DNA of 46,942 nt from Acidobacteriota bacterium (GTDB lineage: Bacteria > Acidobacteriota > Blastocatellia > Chloracidobacteriales > JADJPF01). Shown here one piece after another: positions 1 through 46,165 of the stretch. The notes beneath the pieces are model-generated. The model was given only the letters and a program-made list of their open reading frames with translations, did no database searches and was not told the origin of the DNA. Numbering within the stretch: position 1 is the stretch's first letter; each line of letters opens with the position of its first letter. The position numbers were made by a program, and so were the translations under genes. The stretch covers positions 1-46,942 of the forward strand of contig JACQZQ010000002.1 in assembly GCA_016213785.1 (NCBI GenBank), read 5' to 3'.

Positions 1-1247
1 ACAAAATTACTAATAATAAGCCTAAGTCTGCGGGTACTAATCTTTATCAAGAGTTAGATTTAGCTATTGATGAGTACTTAGAGCATCAAGATATTTCCTA
101 CATCAACAAAGCTAGAGAGATTGCTACTGATATTGACACCAAATATGGTGATAAGTATGGCGTGGATTTGGTGAGTTATTATCAAACTATTTCTAATTCT
201 CAAAAAAAGAATCTCCTGATCTATAGGAAAAAATTTGTAGAATTAAGCAATCAACCCAGTGGAGATAACTATGAGCATAGATTAAAAGAATCTGAAAAAC
301 TTAAAAGTAACTTTTTTTCCTTAGGAAATACTTTAGAAACTTATAAAATAAACACACTAATAGCAAAATTACATGTCAAACTACTTAAATATAAAATAGC
401 TGAAATTGTTATTAATGATGGTTTAAATTTTGCTGATAAACATAATTACTTGTTCTTAAAAGGGCATTTCTTACTTTGGCAAGCAAAAAATCTGAGTGAG
501 CTTTCAGATTTTTCCTTAGCAGAGAGCGTTTTTAAAGAGACTATCAAAATAGGAGAAGTCTTAAAAATAGAAGAACTTTTGATTAGCCCTGGAATGACAT
601 TAGCAGCAATATATCTGAAAAATGACGATAATAAAAAGGCATTAAAAACAGTGGAACAGGTTTTGAACAACTACTCCCTATCTAACATAGAACATACTAT
701 CTCTTTATTACAAATAGGAGGCGTTTCGGCCTTTAACTTAAAACTCTACAATTTATCTGAAGGTTACTTTCATGATGCAATAACACTATCAAAAAAACAC
801 TCTAACTCTTATGCCTTAATAATGTCTTATACCTTTTATGGTGTTACTTTAGCTCAAGCACAACGGTTTGAAAAAGCTGAAGAAGCCTTTGAAAAAGCTA
901 AAGAAGAGACAAAGAAAATACAAGAAGAAGCGAGCAGATTAAATGTATCTTCTATAACCTTAGGCTATCAAGCAAAAGCAAAACTATTAGCAGGCCAATT
1001 TACTAAAGCAATAGAACTCTATAAAGAGACTTTGGCTATTATTGATAAGTTAGAAATCACTAACACTTTAGAAGCCGGTCAAATACAAGAAGGTTTAGCG
1101 ATAGCACTAGAAAAGATTGGTAGAGAAGATGAAGCAAAACAACACATTACTATCGCTAAACACTATCAAGAATTGGCTGCAAGTAAAGAGGAAAGAGCAA
1201 ATTGCTTACTTTCATTTATGCCTAATATTTGTAACACTACTAGATAA
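1..1247 (+). CDS. TPR-repeat protein, 5'-partial (ORF is open to the window start)
   Basis: The frame beginning at nt 3 has no stop before the listed GTG at 162, so the gene most likely continues upstream of the window. The translation is helical and TPR-like (repeated A/Y/L-rich 34-residue-type pattern, e.g. 'AEEAFEKAKEE...LAGQFTKAIELYKETLAI'). Confidence 0.5.
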   Translation, partial: KITNNKPKSAGTNLYQELDLAIDEYLEHQDISYINKAREIATDIDTKYGDKYGVDLVSYYQTISNSQKKNLLIYRKKFVELSNQPSGDNYEHRLKESEKLKSNFFSLGNTLETYKINTLIAKLHVKLLKYKIAEIVINDGLNFADKHNYLFLKGHFLLWQAKNLSELSDFSLAESVFKETIKIGEVLKIEELLISPGMTLAAIYLKNDDNKKALKTVEQVLNNYSLSNIEHTISLLQIGGVSAFNLKLYNLSEGYFHDAITLSKKHSNSYALIMSYTFYGVTLAQAQRFEKAEEAFEKAKEETKKIQEEASRLNVSSITLGYQAKAKLLAGQFTKAIELYKETLAIIDKLEITNTLEAGQIQEGLAIALEKIGREDEAKQHITIAKHYQELAASKEERANCLLSFMPNICNTTR

Positions 1248-1254
1248 TTTGGGT

Positions 1255-2064
1255 CTACTTAATCTCAGATTTGCCAAAAACTAGTGCACCACACATATAA
1301 GGTCTGGGGCTGAAAGCCACCTTTTTACTGACTAAAGGCATAAATTGAGTAGTGTTAGTCTTAATAGCATCATAGTAAAAAGCAAAATGATCAATATTTG
1401 CCATTTCCTTAGGTGGTAAATTGGTAATATTAACTTGATAAGTAGAACCTAGTTGATAAGGTAAGGTGATTACTTGATTTAGACCATTAATTACTAACTT
1501 GTTTCCTTCTTGTAATTGAACTTTTGCAGAAGGTTCTCCTATTTGACGATTAAATGAATGGATTTTGCTTCCTGCTACAAATTGATATTTTTCTTCTGTA
1601 AGTCCATTTGCTAAAAACTCTCCTACTTGAAAATTAATCTTGTAGTAGAGCTTATCTTCCTTCAAATAAAGTTGTTTTTGAAAAAGGTCATTTTCAATAT
1701 CTAAGCACCAACGAAAATCACTAGTATCTTTATTCATATCAGGAGAATAATAACGTGTTGGCTTATGTGGATTGTTAGGCATTGAGATGTTTAATACTTT
1801 TTTATAAAGATCTTTTCCTTCAGCAGTAAAAATAACTTTTTCCTTACCTTTTAGAATCTCTTTTATCTCAAGTTTAGGAGTATGGTGATGAACATCTAAA
1901 ATACCATCTGTTACTTTATCGGGATTACCAAATGCTATTGCTTGCAAACCATCAAACATAAACTTTATTTCACACTTATTTGCTGCATTTACATCAACAT
2001 TATTTACCATCATTGTTGCTATACATATACACACAAATATCACTAAAATAGATACTTTTTTCAT
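1255..2064 (-). CDS. secreted hypothetical protein (N-terminal signal peptide)
   Basis: 269 aa ORF. The N-terminus 'MKKVSILVIFVCICIATMMVNNVDVNA' is a typical Sec signal peptide. An AGGAGA Shine-Dalgarno lies upstream of the ATG (reverse complement of 2066-2078). No recognisable catalytic motif. Confidence 0.5.
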   Translation of the reverse strand: MKKVSILVIFVCICIATMMVNNVDVNAANKCEIKFMFDGLQAIAFGNPDKVTDGILDVHHHTPKLEIKEILKGKEKVIFTAEGKDLYKKVLNISMPNNPHKPTRYYSPDMNKDTSDFRWCLDIENDLFQKQLYLKEDKLYYKINFQVGEFLANGLTEEKYQFVAGSKIHSFNRQIGEPSAKVQLQEGNKLVINGLNQVITLPYQLGSTYQVNITNLPPKEMANIDHFAFYYDAIKTNTTQFMPLVSKKVAFSPRPYMCGALVFGKSEIK

Positions 2065-2843
2065 ATTTTCTCTCCTTTAAGAAAGGGCTATTACCCAATT
2101 ATTTCTAGACTTATTTTGATTAATTAATTATTAACCATTGTGTTTAATTTAACATAAAACCATATAAGTTTTTCACGTAATTTATTTACTTATGTATTTT
2201 CAATAGCTTACGAGATTTATTTTTTTGATCTATTTCAGATCAATTAATAAAATAGTTAATTTATACTTTTTTATAGTACTTATCTTGTGCAACTACACTT
2301 AATATCCCTTGCTAGATCAGTAGAAATTAGGATCAACTAATTAGAACAATTAAAAGTTTCGGGATTTTTTAGCAAAAATTTTCTGTTTTCTGTGACAAAT
2401 CAACTTTTTGCAAACGGCTACATTTAGAAAGGGATAAGTTTAAGTAAGTCATGTTGCAGTAAAGTTGCAGTCTTTTATTAAAAGGATATACAAAACTAGT
2501 GCCAACTTTTTTATTACATAACCTACTTCCCCTATTAAAACCCTAAAACCCTGTCACAAATCAACTTAATTGCTAGGCTTGCTCTAATACTTTTCAAATG
2601 GATCTGTTGTGTTGGAAGAAAGCTTGGAATATATATAGATTGTTTTATTAGTAGGTTTGCTGCTTAGGGTATTGCCAATTTATTTCTAACATACCCCATT
2701 TTTTAGTGTTACTAAAGCTTAATATTTGAGAACTTATTGCAAAGAAATAACTCTTAAAAAAGCAGGAAAATTTAACCATAGAGGAAATAAGGAACACCTT
2801 TTTAGAACAACTTGGAAAGTAACAAACTAAGTATTGATTCAAG

Positions 2844-2870
2844 ATAAATAATCATAAATAATCATAAATA
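2844..2870. repeat. 10-nt tandem repeat (ataaataatc) x ~2.7 in intergenic region
   Basis: Direct reading of 2844-2870. Confidence 0.85.
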
Positions 2871-2998
2871 GCAATGAATACAATAAGATAAACCTACAAG
2901 AGTTAACTAATCTTTAAGCTTACACAAATATAGGCATAGTGATTGCTAAAATAAAATTTTAACCAACCAAAACAAGCTTTAATCATAAGGAGAAAGAT

Positions 2999-3328
2999 AT
3001 GGGCTATGCAAAAGAAAGTACTTATTTTAGAGTTAATAACAACTTATTTATAGATGCTAGTTTGCAGGAATTAACTCAAAGCTATCTAAATAATGAACAA
3101 ATAGCCCTAAACAATCTTAAAAAAGCATTGGAAAACAAAGATTTTAATACTCTCTTTACCATAGGGGATCAACTTTATGGACATGGCTATAGCTTTGGTT
3201 TTCCTGTTATTAGTGAGTTGGGCAAAAATATTGAACTTGCTGCTACAGCTAGAGACTTTTCTCACCTTAATGAGTTAATTGGTTCTCTTAGTTTTTACTT
3301 AGATAATATTAACATTGTTTACCTTTAA
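2999..3328 (+). CDS. hypothetical protein (weak resemblance to a helical HPt-like fold)
   Basis: 109 aa ORF with a strong RBS (AAGGAGAAAGATATG). The segment '...LFTIGDQLYGHGYSFGF...' is only loosely HPt-like, so the function call is not supported. Confidence 0.4.
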   Translation: MGYAKESTYFRVNNNLFIDASLQELTQSYLNNEQIALNNLKKALENKDFNTLFTIGDQLYGHGYSFGFPVISELGKNIELAATARDFSHLNELIGSLSFYLDNINIVYL

Positions 3329-3368
3329 GCTATGACCAAATCTTTTTATAAAACTTAAGCCTTAGTGC

Positions 3369-3638
3369 TTAAGTTTTTATTAAAGAATTAGAGTTTCTTT
3401 CTTTTTTAATTTTTTTATAAGATTCTTTTACCTCAACTATTGCCTTAAATGTATTAAATAGCCCAAAAATGATAATGCCATGATGGCCTTTTAGGCTAAG
3501 ATATTTTAAGTCATTATCAAGAGATTCATACGCTTCACTTAATCCTGCTAGAAACAATATAATAGATACTACTAGCTCTAAATGAATTTTTCCTAATATA
3601 TTTTTTGGACTATCTAATTGTTTTTCTTCGCTACTCAT
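3369..3638 (-). CDS. small hypothetical membrane protein
   Basis: 89 aa ORF with two hydrophobic stretches (LELVVSIILFLAGL; HGIIIFGLFNTF) and an AGGAAAG RBS-like element upstream. Confidence 0.35.
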   Translation of the reverse strand: MSSEEKQLDSPKNILGKIHLELVVSIILFLAGLSEAYESLDNDLKYLSLKGHHGIIIFGLFNTFKAIVEVKESYKKIKKERNSNSLIKT

Positions 3639-3728
3639 TATATTTTCTTTCCTATTATCTTAGAACCAATATAGTTTGGTCAGAGAGTCAAATCTAAAGT
3701 AAGCTTACTTGCAAGTTTTTGCTATTAA

Positions 3729-4124
3729 CTAACCTAGTTTTGTAGGATATCTCGCATCATCGGGAAAACTACCTTTGTTAGGAAGAGTTGCTATCCTTTT
3801 AGCATCGGATTCTGGAGTAGGGGTAGTCCAGGCTTCCCAACCTGGGATAAAACTATTACCTGGTGCTACATATTTTCCATTCTTCATATGTGCATGACCT
3901 ACAACACATAAACGCCATTTCTGGCTATCTATATCAGTATATTCTACGAATGTATATGCCCATTTAGTTTTTTCTGTAGGTTGTGTTACATATTCTGGGT
4001 CTGAGAAATTAGCATTGCCTACCACTACTGCTGCTGTGCTGTCGTTAAATCCAGCAGGCCCTTCTATAGGGTCTCGCCTAATTGTCTTACCTGTCTCATC
4101 TTTAATTGGTTTAGACCATCCCAT
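3729..4124 (-). CDS. hypothetical protein (start revised to the internal ATG)
   Basis: The track ORF runs to 4193. The internal Met 'MGWSKPIKDE...' at 4124 is preceded by GAGGAGAAAAAA, a strong RBS, whereas the upstream 23 codons have no RBS. No family recognised. Confidence 0.45.
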   Translation of the reverse strand: MGWSKPIKDETGKTIRRDPIEGPAGFNDSTAAVVVGNANFSDPEYVTQPTEKTKWAYTFVEYTDIDSQKWRLCVVGHAHMKNGKYVAPGNSFIPGWEAWTTPTPESDAKRIATLPNKGSFPDDARYPTKLG

Positions 4125-4454
4125 TTTTTTCTCCTCACAAACTATAGTACTGATAATCATTCTTATATTACGTAAAGCGAGATTTAGAGTCACAAGACGA
4201 CAGTTTTATAAGTGATTTTATTACATCTCAACACAAATCTTTTACGTATTTTATATGTAGTGTTAAGTTTTCAGTCTTAAAAATCTATCCATTATTCGTT
4301 TTTCGTTGAATTCATTCAATCCATTCATCTTTTCTAAAGAGTTTTATTTTTAAGTCTTAAAAACTAAAAGGTATAAATTATTGCAGTGTGATTTTTTCAC
4401 CTCTATTATTAATCTATATTTGGAAATTTATATTAAGGAACTGATAGTTTACTT

Positions 4455-5483
4455 ATGAAAATAGGTATTTTAGGGGCTGGTAGTATAGGGTGTTATTTAG
4501 GAGCACATTTTATTTATAAAGGGATAAATACTGTTCTTGTTGGACGTGAAAAAATAGTCCAAGAAATATCTGACAATGGACTAAGGATTACAGATTTTAG
4601 AGGGAAAGATTTCCATCTTTCATCAAAACAAGTTAATTGTACTACTAGCATAGGATCTCTTGCGGATAGAGATATAATTTTAATTACGCTAAAAAGTGCA
4701 TCCAGTGAAACTACTGCTAAGGAACTTAAAGGGTTTTTAACTGATAAGACAACTGTGATTAGCTTTCAAAATGGGGTTAGAAATGCAAGTATTTTGCGTT
4801 CTGTCTTAACACAAGCAGAAGTATTAGCTGGGATGGTTCCTTTCAATGTTCTGTGGAATGAAGGAGCACATTTTCATTGTGGAACCAGTGGCAAGCTTGT
4901 TGTTGAAAAACATGCTAGTTCTTCTACATCTACAGAAAAAGCAGTTTCCTTACTTAATAATGTAGGTTTAGAGACTAAAGCAAGTACAAATGTGGAAGGG
5001 ATACTTTGGGGTAAATTAATTTTTAATTTAAACAACGCTATCAATGCTTTAGCAGGAATTCCTTTAAAAGAAGAGTTTTCTAATATTGGATACCGCAAAA
5101 TTGTTGCAGCAACTATGAATGAAGCTCTTTTTATTCTGAAAAAAAGTGGTGTTAAAGCAAAAGCAACAGGTGGTATGATCCCAACAATAGCGCCTCTTGT
5201 TCTATCATTACCAGATTTTTTGTTTTTTAAAATTGCTGCTGGAATGATAAAGATTGATCCTCAAGCACGTTCTTCTATGTGGCAAGACCTAAAACAAGGG
5301 CGTAAAACAGAGATAGATTATATAAATGGAGAAATTGTTAATCTAGCTAAGAAAAATAATTTGATGGCTCCAATTAATACAGCAATTATTGCACTGATTA
5401 AAGAAATAGAAGAGTCTAAACATATACCTCATTTTTCTGCATCAGAACTTAGAAAACGTTTTGGATTAGAGGTTATAACCTAG
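4455..5483 (+). CDS. 2-dehydropantoate 2-reductase (ketopantoate reductase, ApbA/PanE family)
   Basis: N-terminal Rossmann motif 'MKIGILGAGSIGCYLGAHF', 342 aa length and a KPR-like C-terminal domain. Confidence 0.75.
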   Translation: MKIGILGAGSIGCYLGAHFIYKGINTVLVGREKIVQEISDNGLRITDFRGKDFHLSSKQVNCTTSIGSLADRDIILITLKSASSETTAKELKGFLTDKTTVISFQNGVRNASILRSVLTQAEVLAGMVPFNVLWNEGAHFHCGTSGKLVVEKHASSSTSTEKAVSLLNNVGLETKASTNVEGILWGKLIFNLNNAINALAGIPLKEEFSNIGYRKIVAATMNEALFILKKSGVKAKATGGMIPTIAPLVLSLPDFLFFKIAAGMIKIDPQARSSMWQDLKQGRKTEIDYINGEIVNLAKKNNLMAPINTAIIALIKEIEESKHIPHFSASELRKRFGLEVIT

Positions 5484-5646
5484 AAATTTTTACTGGATTT
5501 CCTTAGTTTTTAACATTATATTTTTTGTGCTCCCCTAGTTTTAAGTAGTTAATGAGTTTTGTTGCTTGACTAAACGTACTGATGCTAGAGAAAATAAGGC
5601 TCTAATAAAAGTAACAATACTATTTTAACTAGTTTGGAGATTTTTT

Positions 5647-6021
5647 ATGGAGTTTCATCCGGTTTGTAAATTTAGCGATATTGGTCTAGGTGAAGCTAAA
5701 GCTGCTGTGGTTGCAGGTCATTCAGTAGCAATATTTAATGTTAGAGGAAAGCTTTATGCTATTGAAAATATTTGTCCTCATATGGCTGCCCCGCTTGATG
5801 ATGGCTCTTTAGATGGAACTAAAGTTACTTGTCGCTTGCATTTTTGGGAAATAGATGTAACCAGTGGAAAATGTGTAGAACCTGATAATGGCCGTTGTGT
5901 AGCTACTTTTCCAGTTAAAGTTGAACGTGGGACTATAAAAGTGGGAATTGAGGAAATAAAAGCTGATGTTTCTGATGTTTCTGATGTTTCTGATGAAAAC
6001 TTTGATAAATTTTTACCTTAA
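5647..6021 (+). CDS. Rieske [2Fe-2S] ferredoxin-like protein (NirD / dioxygenase-ferredoxin type)
   Basis: Rieske ligand boxes 'CPHM' (CxH) and 'CRLHFW' (CxxH) with correct spacing, in a 124 aa protein. The C-terminus carries a (DVS)3 acidic repeat. Confidence 0.75.
   Translation: MEFHPVCKFSDIGLGEAKAAVVAGHSVAIFNVRGKLYAIENICPHMAAPLDDGSLDGTKVTCRLHFWEIDVTSGKCVEPDNGRCVATFPVKVERGTIKVGIEEIKADVSDVSDVSDENFDKFLP
5965..5994 (+). repeat. in-frame 9-nt tandem repeat (gatgtttct)x3 encoding (DVS)3
   Basis: Direct reading of 5965-5994 within the 3' end of the Rieske-ferredoxin gene. Confidence 0.9.
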
Positions 6022-6055
6022 GATGTTTCTCCTAAGGTAAAAATTGTGAATAAGT

Positions 6056-7123
6056 TTAGTTAATTATTCTGATTAGTTTTCCATCATATTCTTGAACTTC
6101 TCCTATTATATTTGCTTCAATAGCATGGGATTTAATTTTATCTAATAGAATGGCTGCTTTTTCTTTAGCTACACTAATAAGCAAACCTCCAGCAGTTTGA
6201 GGATCAAATAAAACTGATTGCATAAGAGCAGATATATCAGAAGAAAACTCTACTGTATCCCCTACGTAAGTACGATTATAACGATCTCCTTTAGTCTTTA
6301 TATTTTCAGCAAGTAATTCAAAGACTTGTGGCATTATAGATATGTTGCTTGCATTAAGTTTTAAGGTTACTTTACTTCCTTTAGCCATTTCATAAGCATG
6401 TCCTAACAATCCAAAGCCTGTAATATCAGTTGCAGAATTTACCCCTACTTCTTGCATTGCTTGAGACGCTAAACGATTAGGTTCTGTCATTGCACTAACT
6501 GCTTTTTGCATTGCTTCTTCAGATGCTTTTCCAAACTTAATAGCAGAGCTAATAATTCCTGTCCCCAAAGACTTAGTTAAAATTAATCTGTCTCCTGCTT
6601 TAGCTCCAGAGTTAGTAACAACTTTTTGTGGATGGATTAGCCCTGTTATTGCATAGCCAAACTTAAGTTCTCTATCTTCAACTGTATGGCCTCCAACAAG
6701 AGTTACTCCTACACTAGCAAGCATTTCTGCTCCACCTCTTACCACTTCACCAAAAACGTCTAATTCAGCATCCCCTAAAGGAAGCCCAACAATAGCAAGT
6801 GCTGTTAAAGGTTCGCCTCCCATTGCCCAAACATCGCTTAAAGAATTTACTGCGGCGATTTTGCCAAAAAGATAAGGATCATCCACAACAGGAGTAAAAA
6901 AGTCTACTGTCTGGACTAAGGCTATCTCGTCAGTAAGTTTATAAACCCCTGCATCATCAGAAGTGTTAAAACCTACTAGTAAGTTAGGGTTTGGTACAAA
7001 TTTTGGTAAATGGCTCAGAACTTGAGCTAAATCGCTTGGAGCGACTTTAGATGCTCAACCACCACATTTAGCCATTTCTGTTAATCTTAAGTTTTTTTCT
7101 TTAGAGCTTAATTCTTTAGACAT
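6056..7123 (-). CDS. selD: selenide, water dikinase (selenophosphate synthetase SelD), Sec-containing via in-frame TGA at 7055..7057
   Basis: The track ORF (6056..6886) covers only the AIR-synthase-like body ('DDPYLFGKIAAVNSLSDVWAMGG...'). Extending upstream on the minus strand through one TGA gives ATG at 7123 (GGAG RBS) and the N-terminus 'MSKELSSKEKNLRLTEMAKCGG-U-ASKVAPSDLAQVLSHLP...'. This is the canonical SelD N-terminus in which TGA occupies the catalytic Cys/Sec position. A hairpin follows the TGA. Confidence 0.88.
7027..7050 (-). promoter_or_regulatory. candidate bacterial SECIS-like hairpin, starting 4 nt after the selD TGA
   Basis: mRNA 5'-CUAAAGUCGC UCCAA GCGAUUUAG-3' forms a 9-bp stem with a 1-nt bulge and a 5-nt loop, directly 3' of the in-frame UGA. 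The loop lacks the GGUC-type apical motif of E. coli fdhF, so this is a positional and structural call only. Confidence 0.4.
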
Positions 7124-7159
7124 ATATTTCTCCAATTATAAATATCAATTTTTAGCAAT

Positions 7160-8128
7160 CTAGCACTCTGATAACTGTTGCAGCAAATCATACCAGCATT
7201 TTTCTTCTCTAACAGGGTCAATTAAATATGCTGCTTTCGCACAACTATTTTTTAATTCTTGATAAAAATTAGCATCCATTTCAGCTTTTAAGAATAGATT
7301 TTTAAGAGTCTCTGTATCTGCAACAGAAAAATAACCTGGATAATCTTCTCCTAATGTTGCAACTAGGCTAGGTATATTAGTAGTTATTACAGGGGTTTTG
7401 CTAGCAAGCGCTTCACATAAAACATTTGACCCACCTTCTAAGCGGGATGTAATAGATATTAAATTTGCCTCAGCTATTGCTTGCAAGGTTTTCTCATAAG
7501 AAAATCCTCCTAAATAATGGTAACGGGAGTTTTCTTTTTGAGCTAAATTTATTCTTTCTCTATATTCTGGATTAAGTGGTATTCCTATATGAAAAACCTG
7601 AATTTTTGATTCCGTTGGTAACAGTTTACTTGCTAAAGCAGTACGTAGAGGGTCTTTTTCTGGTCGAAAGTTTGCCACTACTAGAATATTGAAATTATCT
7701 TTAGAAAATACTTCTAACACTTCTCTAGAATTAAAACTAGTAGTTACTGACTGATAAATAACCCTAGTTTTATTTCTTAGATGTGGGGCTAACTCTTCTA
7801 ATGCTTGTTTTTGTAAGACAACTAAGCGAGTAGCGTAATGTAGGGATTGGCAAGCCTCTTCGCTAAATTTAATATGCTGATAAATATCTGTACCAGTTAG
7901 CATAACTACTAGAGGGCGATTAGGATAAAGCTCATAAAAATGCTTAATAGAATTAAAACTACGTAAAGCATGAAGAGCAATCATTAAATCTATGTCTTCG
8001 CCATTATATTCTTTGCTAGTAGATATTTGGTGTCCAAGTTTAGTAATAATTTGCTCAAGACGTAGGGCAGTAATATGATTACCATTAATTAAATCTGCGC
8101 TTGATGGGGTAATAAGTTTAATTTTCAT
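7160..8128 (-). CDS. GT-B fold glycosyltransferase (family-1-like); candidate selenosugar synthase SenB-like by context
   Basis: 322 aa protein with the two-Rossmann-domain layout and C-terminal 'E...GG' type nucleotide-sugar region typical of GT-B glycosyltransferases. It is co-directional with selD and separated by 36 nt. Confidence 0.65.
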   Translation of the reverse strand: MKIKLITPSSADLINGNHITALRLEQIITKLGHQISTSKEYNGEDIDLMIALHALRSFNSIKHFYELYPNRPLVVMLTGTDIYQHIKFSEEACQSLHYATRLVVLQKQALEELAPHLRNKTRVIYQSVTTSFNSREVLEVFSKDNFNILVVANFRPEKDPLRTALASKLLPTESKIQVFHIGIPLNPEYRERINLAQKENSRYHYLGGFSYEKTLQAIAEANLISITSRLEGGSNVLCEALASKTPVITTNIPSLVATLGEDYPGYFSVADTETLKNLFLKAEMDANFYQELKNSCAKAAYLIDPVREEKCWYDLLQQLSEC

Positions 8129-39301: not shown

Positions 39302-41470
39302 TTAAGGATTTTCTATTGTTATTTTCTCGATTAAGTCGCCTCGAACAATTTTATCCACAATTTCAATACCAGCAATTACTTGACCAAAAACTGTATAGCC
39401 TCCATCTAAATGTGGTTGAGGAGAATGACAGATAAAAAACTGGCTTCCACCAGTGTCTTTTCCTGAAAGTGCCATACCTACTGTACCCCGCAAGTAAGGC
39501 TTCATATTGATTTCGCACCTTATTTGATGCCCTGGGCCACCATTTCCATCACCACGAGGATCACCACCTTGAATAACAAAACTAGGCACAACTCTATGAA
39601 AAGAAAGATTATTAAAATAACCTTTTTTAGCTAAATTAATAAAATTGGCTACTGTTAATGGGGCATCTTGGTGAAATAATTCTATTCTAATTCTACCTTT
39701 TGATGTAATTATTTCTGCAATAGGCGCTTTATCTCGGTTAGTACTAGTAGAAATATCTTCATAAAACTTTCTATTACGATCTGTTGCTACTGCTCCTATT
39801 TTATTTTCAAAGTTTCCTACTTCAAGCATTTTTAGTAAATCTACTGCCTGGCGGCGAACTAAGTGATCAGGATCTTTAAGTGCAGAGGTTAAAATAGTAT
39901 TAGCTTTTGTTCCAAACTTAGCAAGCGCCATTAAAATAGCTAGCTTAGCATCATTCATTGTATCTTTGCTGCTTTGTTCATAAGCAGTAGTTAAAACCTT
40001 AAAATCATCATCTGATTTAGTCCCGTCCATTAATAATTCTGCTACAGTAGCGCGAATAATCACATCCTCAGACTTTATTTGTTCTTTTAGTATATTACTA
40101 ATATTGGGGTAATTGACTTTACTCATTGCTCTAAGTACTTCTGGGACTGCACGAGGATCAAGTGTCCCTATAGCTTTACCTGTAAATATTTCATCTAAAA
40201 GTTTTAATGCGCGTTCACCTCCAACTTCACCTAACCCACTTGCAAAGTTTGCTGCTGCTTGCCAATTACCAGATTTAAGACCTGTTTTTGAGTCATAATC
40301 AAAAAATGCATCTGCTCCAAAACGAGCAATTGCTGTTTCTGTCTCAATATTACTTCCTATTGTTGCATTTGGGACTAGCCGCAGTGACTTTATTAGCGAA
40401 AGTGCTGAAGGGTCTTTTATTTGCCCTAAAGCAGTGGAGAGTAAGTAAAGTAAATTAAGCTCATAATTAAGAGGGTCTTTGCTTTTACGATATTCTGAAA
40501 GCAATCGCTCACCCAGTTCTAATAAAGGTTTTGTAGCTTTTTTGTCTTCTAGTGCGCCTAAGGCACGAATAGCATTTGCTTGTACTTGCTGGTCGCTATC
40601 ATTCAGTAATTTTAATAAAGAGTCTAAAACTATTGGGTTTTTAGTTGCACCTAGTGCGGTTGCAATAGCTGCTCTTACTAGTGGATCTTGGTCTTTAGCC
40701 CCAGTTAAAGCTAAATCAATAACAGTTTTAGTCGCTTTACCAGGATTAGCTCTTAATATACGGGCTAAACTATTAGCTGCAACAAATCTTATTTGTAAGT
40801 TAGGCGAGGTTAGTTGCAGAGCTATGGGTTCAATAGCATTTAGAGCACGAACACGCATAAGTGCGGTAAGTGTGTTAGCTACTAGAGCCTCTTGGTTAGA
40901 TTTTAATTCTGATGTTGGCTTAGGCAATATACTAGTAAGCACATTAATAATACGCTCATTTGTTTCATCACCAAGTTGTTTAGCATTTTCACTATTACCA
41001 GCTATTTTTCCTAGTGCTTCTGCTGAGCGAGTGCGGACTTCTGTTACTTCTCCACTGCTTATTAAAGCAGAAATTAAAGCCCTTACACCTTTAACATCTT
41101 CTATTTCACCTAAAGCAAAAGCCGCCATTTCTCTTACTTTAGGATTTCCATCATCTAGTAGGACTTGGCTTAGTGTTCCTACCATAGAGCGTTCACCTAT
41201 TCGCCCAAGTGTTAGTGCTGCTTGCTTTCTTACGCCAGCATGCGAACTAGTAAGATATTGTATAAAATCACTACTAATACCTCGCTCATCTTCCATCTGT
41301 CTTAGGCGAATATAAATTTGTTGAGCAGAGCGGTCTTTTTGAAGTGTAGGAACTTGATTACCACGCTTTAAGTCTTTAAGGTCTTTAAGGTCAATAGGAG
41401 CAGCTTGTGAAAAGGTAATAGAGTAAAAAGTAAAGATTAAAATGATAGAAAAGAGAAATTTTTGTCGCAT
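39302..41470 (-). CDS. secreted HEAT/PBS-lyase-repeat protein with C-terminal cyclophilin-type peptidyl-prolyl cis-trans isomerase domain
   Basis: Signal peptide '[23 protein letters not shown]', then repeated 'VRxxAAxALGxIG' HEAT-like units. The C-terminus '[15 protein letters not shown]...[25 protein letters not shown]' is a canonical cyclophilin core. Confidence 0.8.
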
Positions 41471-41609: not shown

Positions 41610-43070
41610 GTGGATATTGTTGGATTAACAATAGAAAAATTACATAAAGCAATAAAAAATAAAGAAACTACAGTTACAGAAGTTTGTCAGGCTACATTTG
41701 AACGTATTGAAAAACTAAACCCAAAACTAAATGCCTTTCTTAATATCAATAAAGAAAAGTCTTTAGAACGAGCTAAAACTTTAGATGCAAAGCTAAAGAA
41801 TACCTTAGATTTACCTCCGCTTTTTGGTGTTACTGTAGCAATAAAAGATAATATGTGTACGGAAGGAATAACTACTACATGTGGTTCTAAAATTTTAGAA
41901 AATTTTGTTCCTCCTTATTCTGCAACAGCAGTTTTAAGGCTTGAAGAAGCAGGAGCTATTATAGTAGGTAAAACTAATTGTGATGAATTTGCAATGGGAT
42001 CGTCAAATGAAAACTCTGCTTATGGCGTAGTACATAACCCTTGGGATTTAACAAGGGTTCCAGGTGGATCTAGTGGAGGTTCAGCCGCAGCAGTTACCGC
42101 AGACCTTTCTATTGTAGCCTTAGGGTCTGATACTGGAGGTTCTGTTCGTGAGCCTGCTTCTTTTTGTGGCATTTTTGGCTTAAAGCCCACTTATGGTAGA
42201 GTCTCACGCTATGGACTAGTAGCTTTTGGGTCTTCTTTAGATCAAATAGGGCAGTTTGGTAAAACTACTTTAGATGTTGCTAAAGTTCTAAGTGTGGTTG
42301 CTGGTCGTGATCCAAATGATGCTACTTCTTCAAATTGTGAAGTCCCAGACTATTTAGCTGCTCTAAAGAGTCTAGATATTAAAGGTTTACGCGTTGGAAT
42401 ACCAAAAGAAGCTTTTGGAGCAGGATTAAATCCAGAAGTAAAAGATAATGTAGAAAAAGCAATTAAAAATTTAGAAACATTAGGAGCAACTACTGTAGAT
42501 GTAACCTTAGCACATTCTGAGTATGCTATTGCTGATTATTATATTATTGCTACTGCCGAAGCTAGTGCTAACTTAGCCCGTTTTGATGGGGTAAGATATG
42601 GATTTCGTTCTGAGAATGTAAAAAATCTTTCTGATATGTATAAATATACTCGCGATTTAGGTTTTGGTGCTGAAGTAAAACGGCGCATAATGCTTGGTAC
42701 TTATGTTCTTTCTTCAGGTTATTATGATGCTTATTACTTAAAAGCTCAAAAAGTACGTACTTTAATAGAACAAGATTTTCGTAATGCTTTTACAAAGTGC
42801 GATATAATCGCAATGCCTACAGCACCTGTTCCAGCCTTTAAGCTAGGAGAAAAAACCGAAGATCCTTTAGAGATGTATTTGGCTGATATTTATACTGTCA
42901 CATTAAATTTAGCAGGCTTACCAGGTCTTAATGTTCCATGTGGTTTTTCTCAAGGAGGTTTGCCAATAGGCTGCCAACTTGTAGCACCTCATTTTCAAGA
43001 AGCTAAACTTTTACAAGTTGCTAATACCTATGAACAAAATTATCCAAATACAAAACACTTGGAAATCTAA
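41610..43070 (+). CDS. gatA: glutamyl-tRNA(Gln) amidotransferase subunit A
   Basis: Amidase signature '[51 protein letters not shown]' and typical GatA length (486 aa). GTG start. Confidence 0.93.
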
Positions 43071-43124
43071 TGTAATTATCCAGAGATTTTATTTTTGGAT
43101 TAACTAAATTGAGGTTAAATAAAA

Positions 43125-45290
43125 ATGACAATGGATAGAATGACTTTAGCAGAAAAATTAGATTATACACATCGCCGCCTTCTATCAACCATAGATAGTG
43201 AACAAGAAATGGCTGTTTGGAATGAATTCCTTGTCCCTTTAGGTAGAGGAGAGACTTTCCCAGAAATGGTTCGTTATTTTACAACTCGGCTTGAAGATGT
43301 GGTAGCTAAATTGCGCCAAATTACTGCTCAAAATAAACCGCCTGGCTACTTAGCTAGGCTAGAAATGCCTCAATTATGGAATAATTTAGCTTGGACTTTG
43401 ATTGAAAGAAAACTTCCTCAAATAGGGCGAGATTTACTTGTAGCAATGTATGAATTTCAGCTACTACAACAAACCGATATGCGCCGAAGATTTTATAAAG
43501 GCTTTAGTTTACAAAATTTAGGCTGGGCTAATTATTTATTAGGTGATGAAGCTAATGCTCGTAAAGTAGTACGCTTAGCTTTGCTTGAAGAAGTCTTTAA
43601 TACTTTAGAAATGGATTCTAATAATCAGCTTAGGATTGTTTCTTCTAACCCAGCCTATTTAATGCTAAGACAGTCACTAAAATGTAGCACTGTTGAGCTT
43701 AATAACTTTATTTCTTTTGCTCGTGATTTTGCCCGCCGTTATTCAGATAGATGTTTTTATCCAGAGGATTGCTATACTAATTATTTACGTGTTTCAAAAA
43801 CTAGCACTGCTATTTATTCAGCTAGTGAGAATGCCTATATTAATAGTTTTAATTACACTTATTTTTATACATTAATGGATTTATTTCGTAGGGTTAATAC
43901 TGTTGAAGCAATAGAACCTTGTCTATCAGATATCATCTCATATTTATTTAATTCTGTACCAGATTTTGTTATTTGTGAGGAAACTATTTCTCAAAATAAT
44001 TTTAATTTAATTGTTCGTAGTAGTATTACTGATCCAGTAATAACAGAGCTAGGCCATTATTTAGCTGTTGAATGGCGCTATTGGGTTAAAGAAGTACACC
44101 CAGAAGATTTAGTTATACTTGCAAATAAATTAAAAATAGTAGGTATCAGCACAGTGATTTTATTTGTTAGGGATACAGAAACTTCTAGTAATCTATTTGA
44201 CCCAGTTCGCTTAAAAGAAGTAATGCAACGTTTTTATTATCAAGAGAAAATAAACTTTATAGTAATTAAACAGAATGACTTTTTAGAAATTGAAAGAAAA
44301 AATACTAACTTGCTAGCTTTGCTAAAGTTAAGGTTAGAAGCATTAAAATTTGGAAAAATAAATCTTTTAGATAAAGCTTCAGGCTATGAGGTGAGAACAG
44401 ATTTTCCACCTCATATGATAGAAATGAGACCTCAACCTATTGCAGCAATTATAAATGCAGTGGCACCTGCTATGGTTCAAAATCCAGTACAAGCACAAAT
44501 GCCAATGATGAGCCAACATCAAATGATGTCACAAATGCCCCAAGTACAAAATCAAATGATGCCAGCACCACAAATGCCAATGATGCCACAAAATCAAATG
44601 ATGCAAGCCCCGCAAATGCCACCACAAATGCCAATGATGCCACAAAATCAAATGGCTATAATGCCTTTGTCACAAAACCAAATGATGCCGATGCCACCAC
44701 AAAACCAAATGATGCCAGCGCCTCCGCAAATGCCTGGCCCAGCTATGACAATGACTCCTGGTGCAGTTATTCCCCCTGTTCCAAACCAAATGATGCAAGG
44801 TATGCCTATGACACCAGCATTACCTCCTTTTGCTCCTAATCAAGATAGAAACCAAAATCAATCAAAATCACCAAGGCTGGTAATTCGTAACACTGCTAAA
44901 CCTAAAATAACAGAAAGCCCAAATCCTAATGTCTATAAGCCAATGGTTATAAAACCAAGCTTTGAGGCAAAACAAAATTTTGAGGTCAAACCACCAAGTT
45001 TTGAAGTTAAACAAAATTTTGAAGTTAAACCAAGTTTTGAGGTCAAACCAAGCTTTGAAGTCAAACCAAGTTTTGAATCAAAATCAAACTTTGAATCAAA
45101 TAATAGATCTTTTGATGCACAAATATTAAAACCCTGTACTAACTGTCAAAATCAAACATCTTTAAGTTGTAAGACTTGTAATAAAGCCTTTTGTAACGTT
45201 CATATTGATGTTTCTTTATTAAAATGTGAAAGCTGTGCTAATCCAAAATCAGTTGAGGAAAACACTGATATTACAAATAAATTGGAATAG
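43125..45290 (+). CDS. hypothetical protein: ~445 aa unknown N-terminal domain, Q/M/P-rich low-complexity region, 'SFEVKP' hexapeptide repeats, C-terminal Cys-rich zinc-finger-like module
   Basis: 721 aa ORF. The central region contains 'QMPMMPQNQMM...' repeats and 'KPSFEVKPSFEVKPSFE...' repeats. The C-terminus 'CTNCQNQTSLSCKTCNKAFCNVHIDVSLLKCESC' reads CxxC-x7-CxxC-x4-CxxH-x7-CxxC. Confidence 0.6.
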   Translation: MTMDRMTLAEKLDYTHRRLLSTIDSEQEMAVWNEFLVPLGRGETFPEMVRYFTTRLEDVVAKLRQITAQNKPPGYLARLEMPQLWNNLAWTLIERKLPQIGRDLLVAMYEFQLLQQTDMRRRFYKGFSLQNLGWANYLLGDEANARKVVRLALLEEVFNTLEMDSNNQLRIVSSNPAYLMLRQSLKCSTVELNNFISFARDFARRYSDRCFYPEDCYTNYLRVSKTSTAIYSASENAYINSFNYTYFYTLMDLFRRVNTVEAIEPCLSDIISYLFNSVPDFVICEETISQNNFNLIVRSSITDPVITELGHYLAVEWRYWVKEVHPEDLVILANKLKIVGISTVILFVRDTETSSNLFDPVRLKEVMQRFYYQEKINFIVIKQNDFLEIERKNTNLLALLKLRLEALKFGKINLLDKASGYEVRTDFPPHMIEMRPQPIAAIINAVAPAMVQNPVQAQMPMMSQHQMMSQMPQVQNQMMPAPQMPMMPQNQMMQAPQMPPQMPMMPQNQMAIMPLSQNQMMPMPPQNQMMPAPPQMPGPAMTMTPGAVIPPVPNQMMQGMPMTPALPPFAPNQDRNQNQSKSPRLVIRNTAKPKITESPNPNVYKPMVIKPSFEAKQNFEVKPPSFEVKQNFEVKPSFEVKPSFEVKPSFESKSNFESNNRSFDAQILKPCTNCQNQTSLSCKTCNKAFCNVHIDVSLLKCESCANPKSVEENTDITNKLE

Positions 45291-45370: not shown

Positions 45371-46165
45371 ATGATTAAAGTGATGACTTTTAATATTCGT
45401 TATGGAACGGCTGAAGATAGTATAAATCATTGGGATAATCGTAAACATTTAGTAATAGAAAGAATTAGAGCTTTTGATCCTGACTTACTTGGTTTACAAG
45501 AATGCCGTGATGATGAACAAGCACAATATATAAAAGAAAAACTTTCTGACTATCAATTTATCGGTGTTCGCCGTGCTTTAGAAGGTAATGATAGTGTAGA
45601 AATGTCTCCAATGCTTTATAAAAAATCTCGTTTTACAGAAATGGCAAGTAGCTTTTTTTGGCTTAGTGATAGTCCACACATTCCTGCTAGTGTTTTTCAA
45701 GGTAGCGCTTTTCCAAGAACTGTTACCTGGGCTTCACTACAGCCTCATGAAAATAGAAAACGCATTTTTACTTTTTTTAATACACATTTTGATTATCAAA
45801 GCCCCTCAGTCCAATTAAAATCTGCTCAACTCTTACGCCGACGTATTGAAGCCTTGGGTGCTAGTATGCCTGTGATAGTTACAGGTGATTTTAATGCTAA
45901 TCGAGGAAGCGAACCTTTCCGTCATTTAGCCGATACTGAAAGCCTAAACCCCTTAAGTGATGCTTACTCACAACTTCATCCAAATGATAGGCAAGGTACT
46001 TATCATGAGTATGGTAGTCTTTCAATCCCTACTTCAATAGATTGGGTTTTATTTTCTTCTAAACATTTCTTTACCCGCTTATCAAAAATTGATTTTACTA
46101 CTCAAGGTCGTATTTATCCTTCTGATCACTATCCAATTTGTGTAGAGTTTGACTGGTCTAGCTAA
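45371..46165 (+). CDS. endonuclease/exonuclease/phosphatase (EEP) family protein
   Basis: 264 aa protein. The N-terminus 'VMTFNIRYG' and the C-terminal 'SDHYPICVEF' are typical catalytic ends of EEP-fold enzymes. Confidence 0.7.
   Translation: MIKVMTFNIRYGTAEDSINHWDNRKHLVIERIRAFDPDLLGLQECRDDEQAQYIKEKLSDYQFIGVRRALEGNDSVEMSPMLYKKSRFTEMASSFFWLSDSPHIPASVFQGSAFPRTVTWASLQPHENRKRIFTFFNTHFDYQSPSVQLKSAQLLRRRIEALGASMPVIVTGDFNANRGSEPFRHLADTESLNPLSDAYSQLHPNDRQGTYHEYGSLSIPTSIDWVLFSSKHFFTRLSKIDFTTQGRIYPSDHYPICVEFDWSS

Follow-up and report, generated by a model that had tools for sequence, protein, structure and literature searches.

The 46,942-nucleotide stretch of an Acidobacteriota genome analysed here (positions 1 to 46,942 of contig JACQZQ010000002.1, assembly GCA_016213785.1; hereafter the window) carries a gene for a protein of 721 amino acids (aa) at 43125..45290 on the forward strand. 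This open reading frame (ORF) is the sole long one, on either strand, across the repeat region, and its GC content is that of the surrounding genes. The sequence GAGG lies upstream of it, at 43112-43115, and the ATG at 43131 could be an alternative true start, as homologues begin at the position of M3. As an earlier note on this DNA had stated, the protein has no signal peptide; its N-terminus is polar, it has no transmembrane (TM) segment, its sole hydrophobic peak is the beta-strand region of the globular domain, and it is cytoplasmic. It consists of a TPR-like solenoid, an Mrr-type PD-(D/E)XK fold, a disordered linker of ~170 aa, a PRLVIRN motif, a spacer and a C5HC2 zinc finger, with the following features:

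43125..45290, forward strand: whole ORF, 721 aa (homologues begin at the M3 position).
43125..43949, forward strand: TPR-like alpha-solenoid, aa 1-275, 14 helices.
43926..43931, forward strand: S268-D269; S268 stands at the helix Glu position of active relatives, and D269 is a clade-specific invariant.
43950..44360, forward strand: Mrr_cat-type PD-(D/E)XK restriction-endonuclease (REase) fold with a degenerate active site, aa 276-412 (hmmsearch, hhalign, AF2).
44004..44006, forward strand: N294, at the catalytic Asp position (alignment with relatives).
44070..44078, forward strand: E316-W317-R318, remnant of the E-x-K motif, 'VECKNW' in relatives and 'VEWRYW' in the window protein (alignment, hhalign).
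44361..44870, forward strand: disordered linker, aa 413-582, with an M/P/Q-rich core at aa 446-575 and imperfect tandem units of 18-27 nt (composition, Tandem Repeats Finder (TRF), alignment).
44871..44891, forward strand: basic motif P-R-L-V-I-R-N, aa 583-589 (family alignment).
44958..45125, forward strand: nine (S/N)F(E/D)xKx hexapeptide repeats, aa 612-667 (closest sub-clade only).
45135..45236, forward strand: C5HC2 binuclear cross-brace zinc finger, aa 671-704 (ligand conservation, Pfam, AF2, Foldseek).

We are highly confident in this architecture, taken jointly with the ancestry and the inactivation described below.

The full protein returned nothing significant from Pfam, NCBIfam and PADLOC scans or from a PDB sequence search, and PADLOC-DB gave zero matches for it at E<=10. 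A homologue search identified eight relatives (44-75% identity), each of which comes from a metagenome-assembled genome (MAG) labelled, where the labels look credible, as Blastocatellia/Acidobacteriota; later scans added P0010, P0080, L011, L013 and L016. This zinc-finger family is confined to a few Blastocatellia/Acidobacteriota MAGs. The MAGs of L010 and L011 are titled 'uncultured Clostridia bacterium' despite their Blastocatellia-type gene, which is probably a mislabel. The N-terminal 412 aa show a mean column identity of 71% in the family alignment, and the conserved core is the N-domain together with the basic PRLVIRN motif and the C5HC2 finger.

Searching with a profile of this N-domain, hmmsearch detected 239 representatives at E<=1e-3, of which 55 also reach E<=1e-10. 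Standalone proteins with a length of 370-420 aa (typically ~380 aa) predominate, aligned from profile positions 50-100 to 407. The profile matched proteins that carry Mrr_cat at E-values from 8e-32 to 1e-10, and nine of ten sampled relatives score above the gathering threshold of Pfam Mrr_cat (PF04471; 25-43 bits against a cutoff of 21). When the clade was compared with 30 relatives, hhalign returned a probability of 100% and an E-value of 1.2e-50 over 345 columns, with the Mrr_cat region falling on aa 255-365. Homology to bona fide Mrr_cat members is therefore demonstrable, although the window protein itself has no Mrr_cat match even at E<=10 and does not reach the gathering threshold (21 bits). 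Strands and helices alternate within aa 276-412 in the AF2 model. The Pfam TPR hidden Markov model found no match in the window protein; relatives show weak TPR matches (E 0.002-0.07), in several of them upstream of Mrr_cat, and the N-terminal helical-repeat fold resembles solved TPR proteins.

The standalone TPR and Mrr_cat proteins (for example P0013-P0060) are homologous to the window protein over aa 54-412. Both have a TPR-like helical half and a REase-fold half, and both keep the YLF helix, the xLxxRN strand, the ILF strand and the terminal YE..RF helix. The relatives stop directly after the nuclease fold, whereas the window protein continues for ~310 C-terminal residues, comprising the tether and the zinc finger, and has in addition an N-terminal segment of 53 aa; this segment, with its invariant 'FTTRL' motif, is specific to the zinc-finger clade. 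The N-domain descends from a standalone ~380-aa TPR-Mrr_cat family with an intact E/D/ExK site, and this parent family appears to be undescribed. The domain that the earlier note had placed here is real, but it ends at about aa 412 instead of ~445, and what was then a domain of unknown function is now seen to be a TPR and Mrr_cat fold.

The active site separates the two groups. The Mrr signature of the relatives reads 'L-E-x-L-x-x-Y-L' (E in 47 of 48), 'E-x-D-L-x-x-R-N' (D in 48 of 48) and 'V-E-C-K-N-W' (E in 48 of 48, K in 47 of 48). The helix Glu, present in 47/48 relatives, occurs in 0/12 members of the zinc-finger clade, which carry S, A, K or T instead. The catalytic Asp is found in 48/48 relatives against 2/12 of the clade (P0008 and P0010; the other ten have N, S or G), and the catalytic Lys in 47/48 against 0/12 (R in 11/12, Q in 1/12). 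The window protein accordingly fails a test for the catalytic signature of helix Glu, Asp and (E/Q)xK, with S268, N294 and E316-W-R318 in their places, and the nuclease is predicted to be dead. Because the clade has invariant residues of its own (D269, W317, R318, D350 and Q383), the site is under a different constraint and not in simple decay. Net charge of the REase subdomain did not discriminate between the clade and the active relatives. A regular expression for the finger, run over all 154 retrieved proteins, matched only P0001, P0003-8, P0010 and P0080, all of which belong to the clade with the degenerate site.

The finger has eight ligands, C671, C674, C682, C685, C690, H693, C701 and C704, spaced C-x2-C-x7-C-x2-C-x4-C-x2-H-x7-C-x2-C. 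They are invariant in 10/10 family members that reach the C-terminus, as are the flanks 'L-x-P-C-T' and 'N-x-T-S-L'. The AF2 model of a 51-aa finger segment, which contains no metal, has a predicted local distance difference test (pLDDT) score of 79 overall and of 84-90 at residues 11-40, and resembles the cross-brace fingers of FYVE, PHD and the piggyBac cysteine-rich domain (CRD). Foldseek found nothing significant for this model in the PDB; its top-ranked matches are cross-brace fingers, led by the piggyBac transposase CRD (TMq 0.54, 49 columns, 31% identity, not significant) and followed by RING, PHD and PML B-box1. The model suggests an interleaved 1,2,5,6 / 3,4,7,8 coordination and, by analogy with the piggyBac CRD, C671/C674/C690/H693 are predicted to bind the first zinc and C682/C685/C701/C704 the second. 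These data support a cross-brace treble-clef finger as the fold class; assignment to a named family is not supported. Over nine finger segments, Pfam gave sub-threshold matches to ANCHR-like B-box (9/9), zf-AN1 (9/9), C5HCH (8/9), zf-HIT (7/9) and zf-B_box (4/9), and the weak ANCHR-like_BBOX and zf-AN1 matches of the nine family fingers reach best E-values of 0.002-0.003. A comparison of the finger profile with PDB sequences yielded noise only, the PML B-box (E 1.3) and C2H2 fingers being spurious partial matches. A homologue search with the 51-aa finger alignment found nothing and also missed the family itself, and is thus uninformative for such short queries.

Scanning viral contigs for the finger revealed no relatives, and scanning metagenomes revealed two more family members together with weak partial matches in L017, L018 and L019, of which that in L019 is spurious. 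L017 encodes two adjacent paralogous membrane proteins (2470..3129 and 3178..3771, forward strand), each with an N-terminal signal/TM segment, a domain of ~130 aa and a TM helix. Both end in a Cys8 module, C-x2-C-x7-C-x2-C-x4-C-x2-C-x4-C-x2-C, whose first six ligands are spaced as in the window finger, and the L018 match is likewise a membrane protein with a Cys8 tail. The L017 proteins suggest that this small binuclear module also serves as the cytoplasmic tail of unrelated proteins in prokaryotes.

Between the nuclease fold and the finger lies the most conspicuous part of the protein. Met makes up 25% of residues 446-575, Pro 24%, Gln 19% and Asn 6%. In the richest stretch of 100 aa, M+P+Q together account for 74%; for the other long ORFs of the window the corresponding median is 10% and the 99th percentile 46%. 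Background Met is 2.2%. The motif P[RK]LVI[RK][NS] that follows is conserved in every family member reaching that position, and aa 583-611 around it have an isoelectric point of 10.6 and a net charge of +5. TRF detects an imperfect tandem array with an 18-nt period and 7-8 copies at 44951-45100, the DNA counterpart of the hexapeptide units. The linkers are far from uniform. The first linker is 164-172 aa long with ~20% Met in the window protein (WIN), P0001 and P0003-5, whereas those of P0006-8 span 61-116 aa and are Pro-rich with a Met content of only 2-6%. P0010 has PKLVIKN and the finger with a linker of only ~20 aa between the nuclease fold and the motif, and lacks both the M/P/Q tract and the SFEVKP repeats. 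Hexapeptide copy number ranges from 0 to 9 among members, the repeats being limited to the closest sub-clade. In L011 the linker (~7400..7960) contains perfect NQMGQMPPPMMQ tandem copies broken by a scaffold gap of 100 N, and the 'partial' protein P0002 ends in the same tract; the tracts therefore appear to expand by slippage and to break assemblies. The M/P/Q tract and SFEVKP repeats are lineage-specific, slippage-type expansions of a tether, outside the conserved core.

The earlier note had described a tract, hexapeptide repeats and a C-terminal C2-C2-CH-C2 module, and composition, TRF and the ligand alignment bear out all three. Its count of eight repeats becomes nine units at aa 612-667, the ~115 residues it gave for the tract fall short of a biased linker spanning about aa 413-582, and the repeat architecture for which it would have searched the homologues is found only in the closest sub-clade and is absent from P0010. 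'Prion-like', too, a term for Q/N-rich tracts low in Pro and charge, is a poor label for a tract with 24% Pro, as high proline disfavours amyloid or cross-beta assembly. The closest homologue, P0001 (KAF0249525.1), bears the NCBI name 'prolamin', that of a plant seed-storage protein; we reject this identity as an artefact of P/Q composition. Family members may also be under-counted or mis-called as truncated, since the repeats evidently break metagenome assemblies.

The window as a whole is an ordinary bacterial chromosome region, with dnaE, two-component systems, a flavin reductase, a secreted HEAT-cyclophilin fusion, gatA and an EEP-family gene; its first 8,000 nucleotides (1..8000) have a GC content of 27-33%, lower than the 35-42% of the rest. 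The neighbours of the ORF are:

39302..41470, reverse strand: HEAT-cyclophilin protein of 722 aa, with a signal-peptide-like N-terminus, a long HEAT array and a C-terminal cyclophilin-type peptidyl-prolyl isomerase.
41610..43070, forward strand: gatA (Amidase, PF01425), 54 nt upstream of the 721-aa ORF.
45371..46165, forward strand: EEP-family (endonuclease/exonuclease/phosphatase) protein, immediately downstream of the 721-aa ORF.

There is no convincing terminator between gatA and the ORF, and the two are probably co-transcribed; a promoter/terminator scan found sites no more numerous than in shuffled sequence and so provides no evidence on operon boundaries. Four of seven family contexts (the window, L001, L003 and L016) have gatA upstream. 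The unusual secreted HEAT-cyclophilin fusion, divergent beside gatA, is conserved in the gatA contexts of L001 and L003. P0005, P0008 and P0010 have other neighbours and not gatA. Because neighbours differ among members, no partner gene is conserved; the linkage with gatA appears to be synteny that was inherited. The EEP gene is probably unrelated, as it is no neighbour in the other family contexts examined.

The contexts of the clade are housekeeping regions. By comparison, of the four contexts examined for active relatives, two are defence or mobile islands, and in a third the gene comes after an Xre-type helix-turn-helix (HTH) gene. P0014 (L021 443..6125) adjoins a Gabija-like pair of an OLD-TOPRIM ATPase and a UvrD helicase, plus an RNase T-like exonuclease; P0025 (L020 7001..13143) sits in an island with a phage integrase, an Xre-type HTH gene and an SNase; and P0015 is the one that comes after an Xre-type HTH gene. 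The contig of P0013 is too short for an informative context. No named PADLOC or NCBIfam family was matched by the active relatives, P0017 giving only a weak match to the PADLOC candidate PDC-S02, and cluster look-ups for them returned no informative names. It may be that the 380-aa TPR-Mrr_cat family is a single-gene defence nuclease that has gone unrecognised.

On balance, we consider it fairly probable that the window protein is an exapted ('domesticated'), non-cutting nuclease, most likely acting as a bivalent binding or adaptor protein. In a Blastocatellia ancestor, a defence-type TPR-Mrr nuclease would have lost catalysis and gained a tethered basic motif and cross-brace finger. The dead REase/TPR module might then hold one ligand, either nucleic acid or a peptide or protein in the TPR groove, the PRLVIRN segment and the finger could form a second binding head, whose target would be DNA, as with the piggyBac CRD, or a partner protein, and reach and perhaps local concentration would depend on the 20-170 aa of disordered linker. 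Precedents exist for each element: peptides are the ligands of TPR solenoids, C-terminal cross-brace fingers recognise DNA (piggyBac CRD) or proteins, inactive PD-(D/E)XK domains elsewhere are nucleic-acid-binding or dimerisation modules, and nuclease-dead partners of the ERCC1/EME1 type retain non-catalytic PD-(D/E)XK folds as binding modules. That nucleic-acid binding in particular is the actual activity we put forward tentatively, as a possibility that falls short of probable. A far more specific proposal, in which the domesticated nuclease is a non-catalytic chromatin or regulatory factor with a genuine bacterial finger of the FYVE/PHD/piggyBac-CRD kind, a fold class regarded as largely eukaryotic, and in which oxidation would act through the Met tether on DNA binding or self-assembly, strikes us as very unlikely. 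Such a protein would amount to a DNA-binding scaffold of bacteria that forms condensates and is switched by redox state.

Several other explanations compete with domestication. The protein could still be an active nuclease or defence effector that uses a non-canonical N/S-E-R site, with finger and tether as a targeting or sensor module. The catalytic Glu does remain E or D in all members, P0008 and P0010 retain the Asp, and the relatives, which are intact nucleases, in some cases lie in defence or mobile contexts; but the loss of the helix Glu from 12/12, of the Asp from 10/12 and of the Lys from 12/12 members, the lack of any PADLOC match, and a synteny with gatA and the HEAT-cyclophilin gene that is stable across members 44-75% identical, unlike that of defence islands, make this quite unlikely. 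Somewhat less so, to our mind, is an adaptor tied to translation or transcription, in which the finger would bind a protein, the TPR groove a peptide, and the link to gatA or def would be functional. RING, B-box and AN1 fingers and the bacterial anti-sigma fingers CsfB/Gin provide parallels for protein binding.

We give similarly little credence to a condensate or redox scaffold, in which the Met-rich tract would self-associate with Met oxidation as the switch and the folded domains would merely recruit clients. About 20% Met is kept in the diverging linkers of seven members (WIN, P0001, P0003-5 and L016, with 15% in L011), and Met-rich low-complexity domains have been tied to oxidation-regulated phase separation (PMC8394241, PMC7682574). 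However, Met-richness is not family-wide (2-6% in P0006-8, and almost no linker in P0010), and the tracts look like recent products of slippage, as in the perfect NQMGQMPPPMMQ repeats of L011. A Pro content of ~20-30% also disfavours cross-beta assembly. Neither a condensate role nor one as a copper or oxidant buffer can be the conserved core function. The earlier note had further thought of a eukaryote-flavoured protein, derived from or mimicking eukaryotic ones through horizontal transfer, or of a Met-rich copper-binding protein, and both ideas are now largely refuted and extremely improbable. The cross-brace finger families to which the finger is weakly similar are mostly eukaryotic, but no eukaryotic family is significant, the N-domain is a bacterial TPR and Mrr_cat domain with hundreds of prokaryotic-type relatives in metagenomes, and GC content is that of the surrounding genes. 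Met-rich motifs do bind Cu(I) in periplasmic copper proteins; here, by contrast, there is no export signal, the family as a whole does not share the Met-richness, and a periplasmic protein of the CopA/PcoA/CueO/CusF type, which would combine such a signal with a cupredoxin or CusF fold bearing Met motifs, was rejected for want of an N-terminal hydrophobic segment and of any Pfam, NCBIfam or PDB similarity. What the earlier note had named as telling against its own view has come about in part, in that the protein shows clear homology to bacterial proteins whose family fold is known, while its tract and repeats are lineage-specific.

If domestication is the right reading, the locus offers a clean natural case of a defence-type REase fold that has lost its activity and now serves as a binding protein with a housekeeping role, the loss coinciding with the gain of a two-zinc finger whose C5HC2 signature is otherwise known from the piggyBac DNA-binding domain. 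It would also contribute bacterial evidence on how FYVE/PHD/RING-like fingers arose and spread. The work defines a previously unannotated TPR-Mrr_cat family of ~240 representatives, which may include single-gene defence nucleases, and it shows that the conspicuous low-complexity tracts here are evolutionary noise on a tether, which break assemblies and draw spurious names such as 'prolamin'. For now the impact is modest, given the narrow distribution and a function that we infer.

Comparison with known systems places each part. Pfam defines NACHT-associated inactive REases, and NA-iREase1 (PF22722) embodies the same idea as the window protein, namely a PD-(D/E)XK fold minus its catalytic residues, kept for binding. 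The active relatives show weak NA-iREase1 matches (E 0.015-0.08), whereas the window protein has no significant PF22722 match and no NACHT/STAND partner; inactivation in the zinc-finger clade is independent and clade-specific. The tract, for its part, shares high Met, disorder and low charge with the Met-rich domains of yeast ataxin-2/Pbp1 and TDP-43, but it is bacterial and very Pro-rich, and the Met-rich property is not family-wide.

For the finger, the earlier note had invoked the MYND/HIT/B-box type, of which the treble-clef/cross-brace class holds and membership in HIT or B-box does not, on grounds of scores and of the last ligand pair. AN1, B-box (including ANCHR-like) and HIT share with the window finger the spacing C-x2-C...C-x2-C-x4-C-x2-H of ligands one to six, down to the 'FCxxH' seen in AN1, but the last pair is C-x2-C in the window finger against H-x-C in AN1 and H...H in B-box, and scores lie far under the gathering cutoffs (7-18 bits against 25-28). 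We accordingly rejected zf-AN1 (PF01428; tested as C-x2-C-x9-12-C-x1-2-C-x4-C-x2-H-x5-H-x-C), which scores 7-15 bits against 27.9 and from which the window finger departs in its first loop of x7 and its final C-x2-C after x7. B-box (PF00643, PF22586) and zf-HIT (PF04438) were likewise rejected, all matches being under the gathering score (best E 0.0019, ~18 bits against 27, for ANCHR-like_BBOX, 0.025 for zf-B_box and 0.001 for zf-HIT), even though they recur in 4-9 of nine members. Membership of FYVE was rejected on direct inspection, as aa 660-710 contain no WxxD, R(R/K)HHCR or RVC, and the finger has neither the PHD aromatic cage signature nor a Pfam match to FYVE, PHD or RING.

The piggyBac CRD binds two zincs through C559, C562, C582 and H585 and through C574, C577, C590 and C593, and its authors called the C5HC2 motif unusual (PMC5861402). 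The CRD and the window finger agree in ligand order and in the central C-x2-C-x4-C-x2-H spacing; the loops are x7/x7 in the window finger and x11/x4 in the CRD, and the similarity is not statistically significant. The CRD comes from a DDE transposase of eukaryotes; it recognises a specific DNA motif, and such binding has been shown for the CRD only (PMC5861402). Taken singly, the TPR-like solenoid, the PD-(D/E)XK fold and the cross-brace zinc finger of the window protein are of known kinds; what appears to be undescribed and unannotated is their combination, in which an expandable low-complexity tether joins a dead Mrr_cat domain to a C5HC2 finger.

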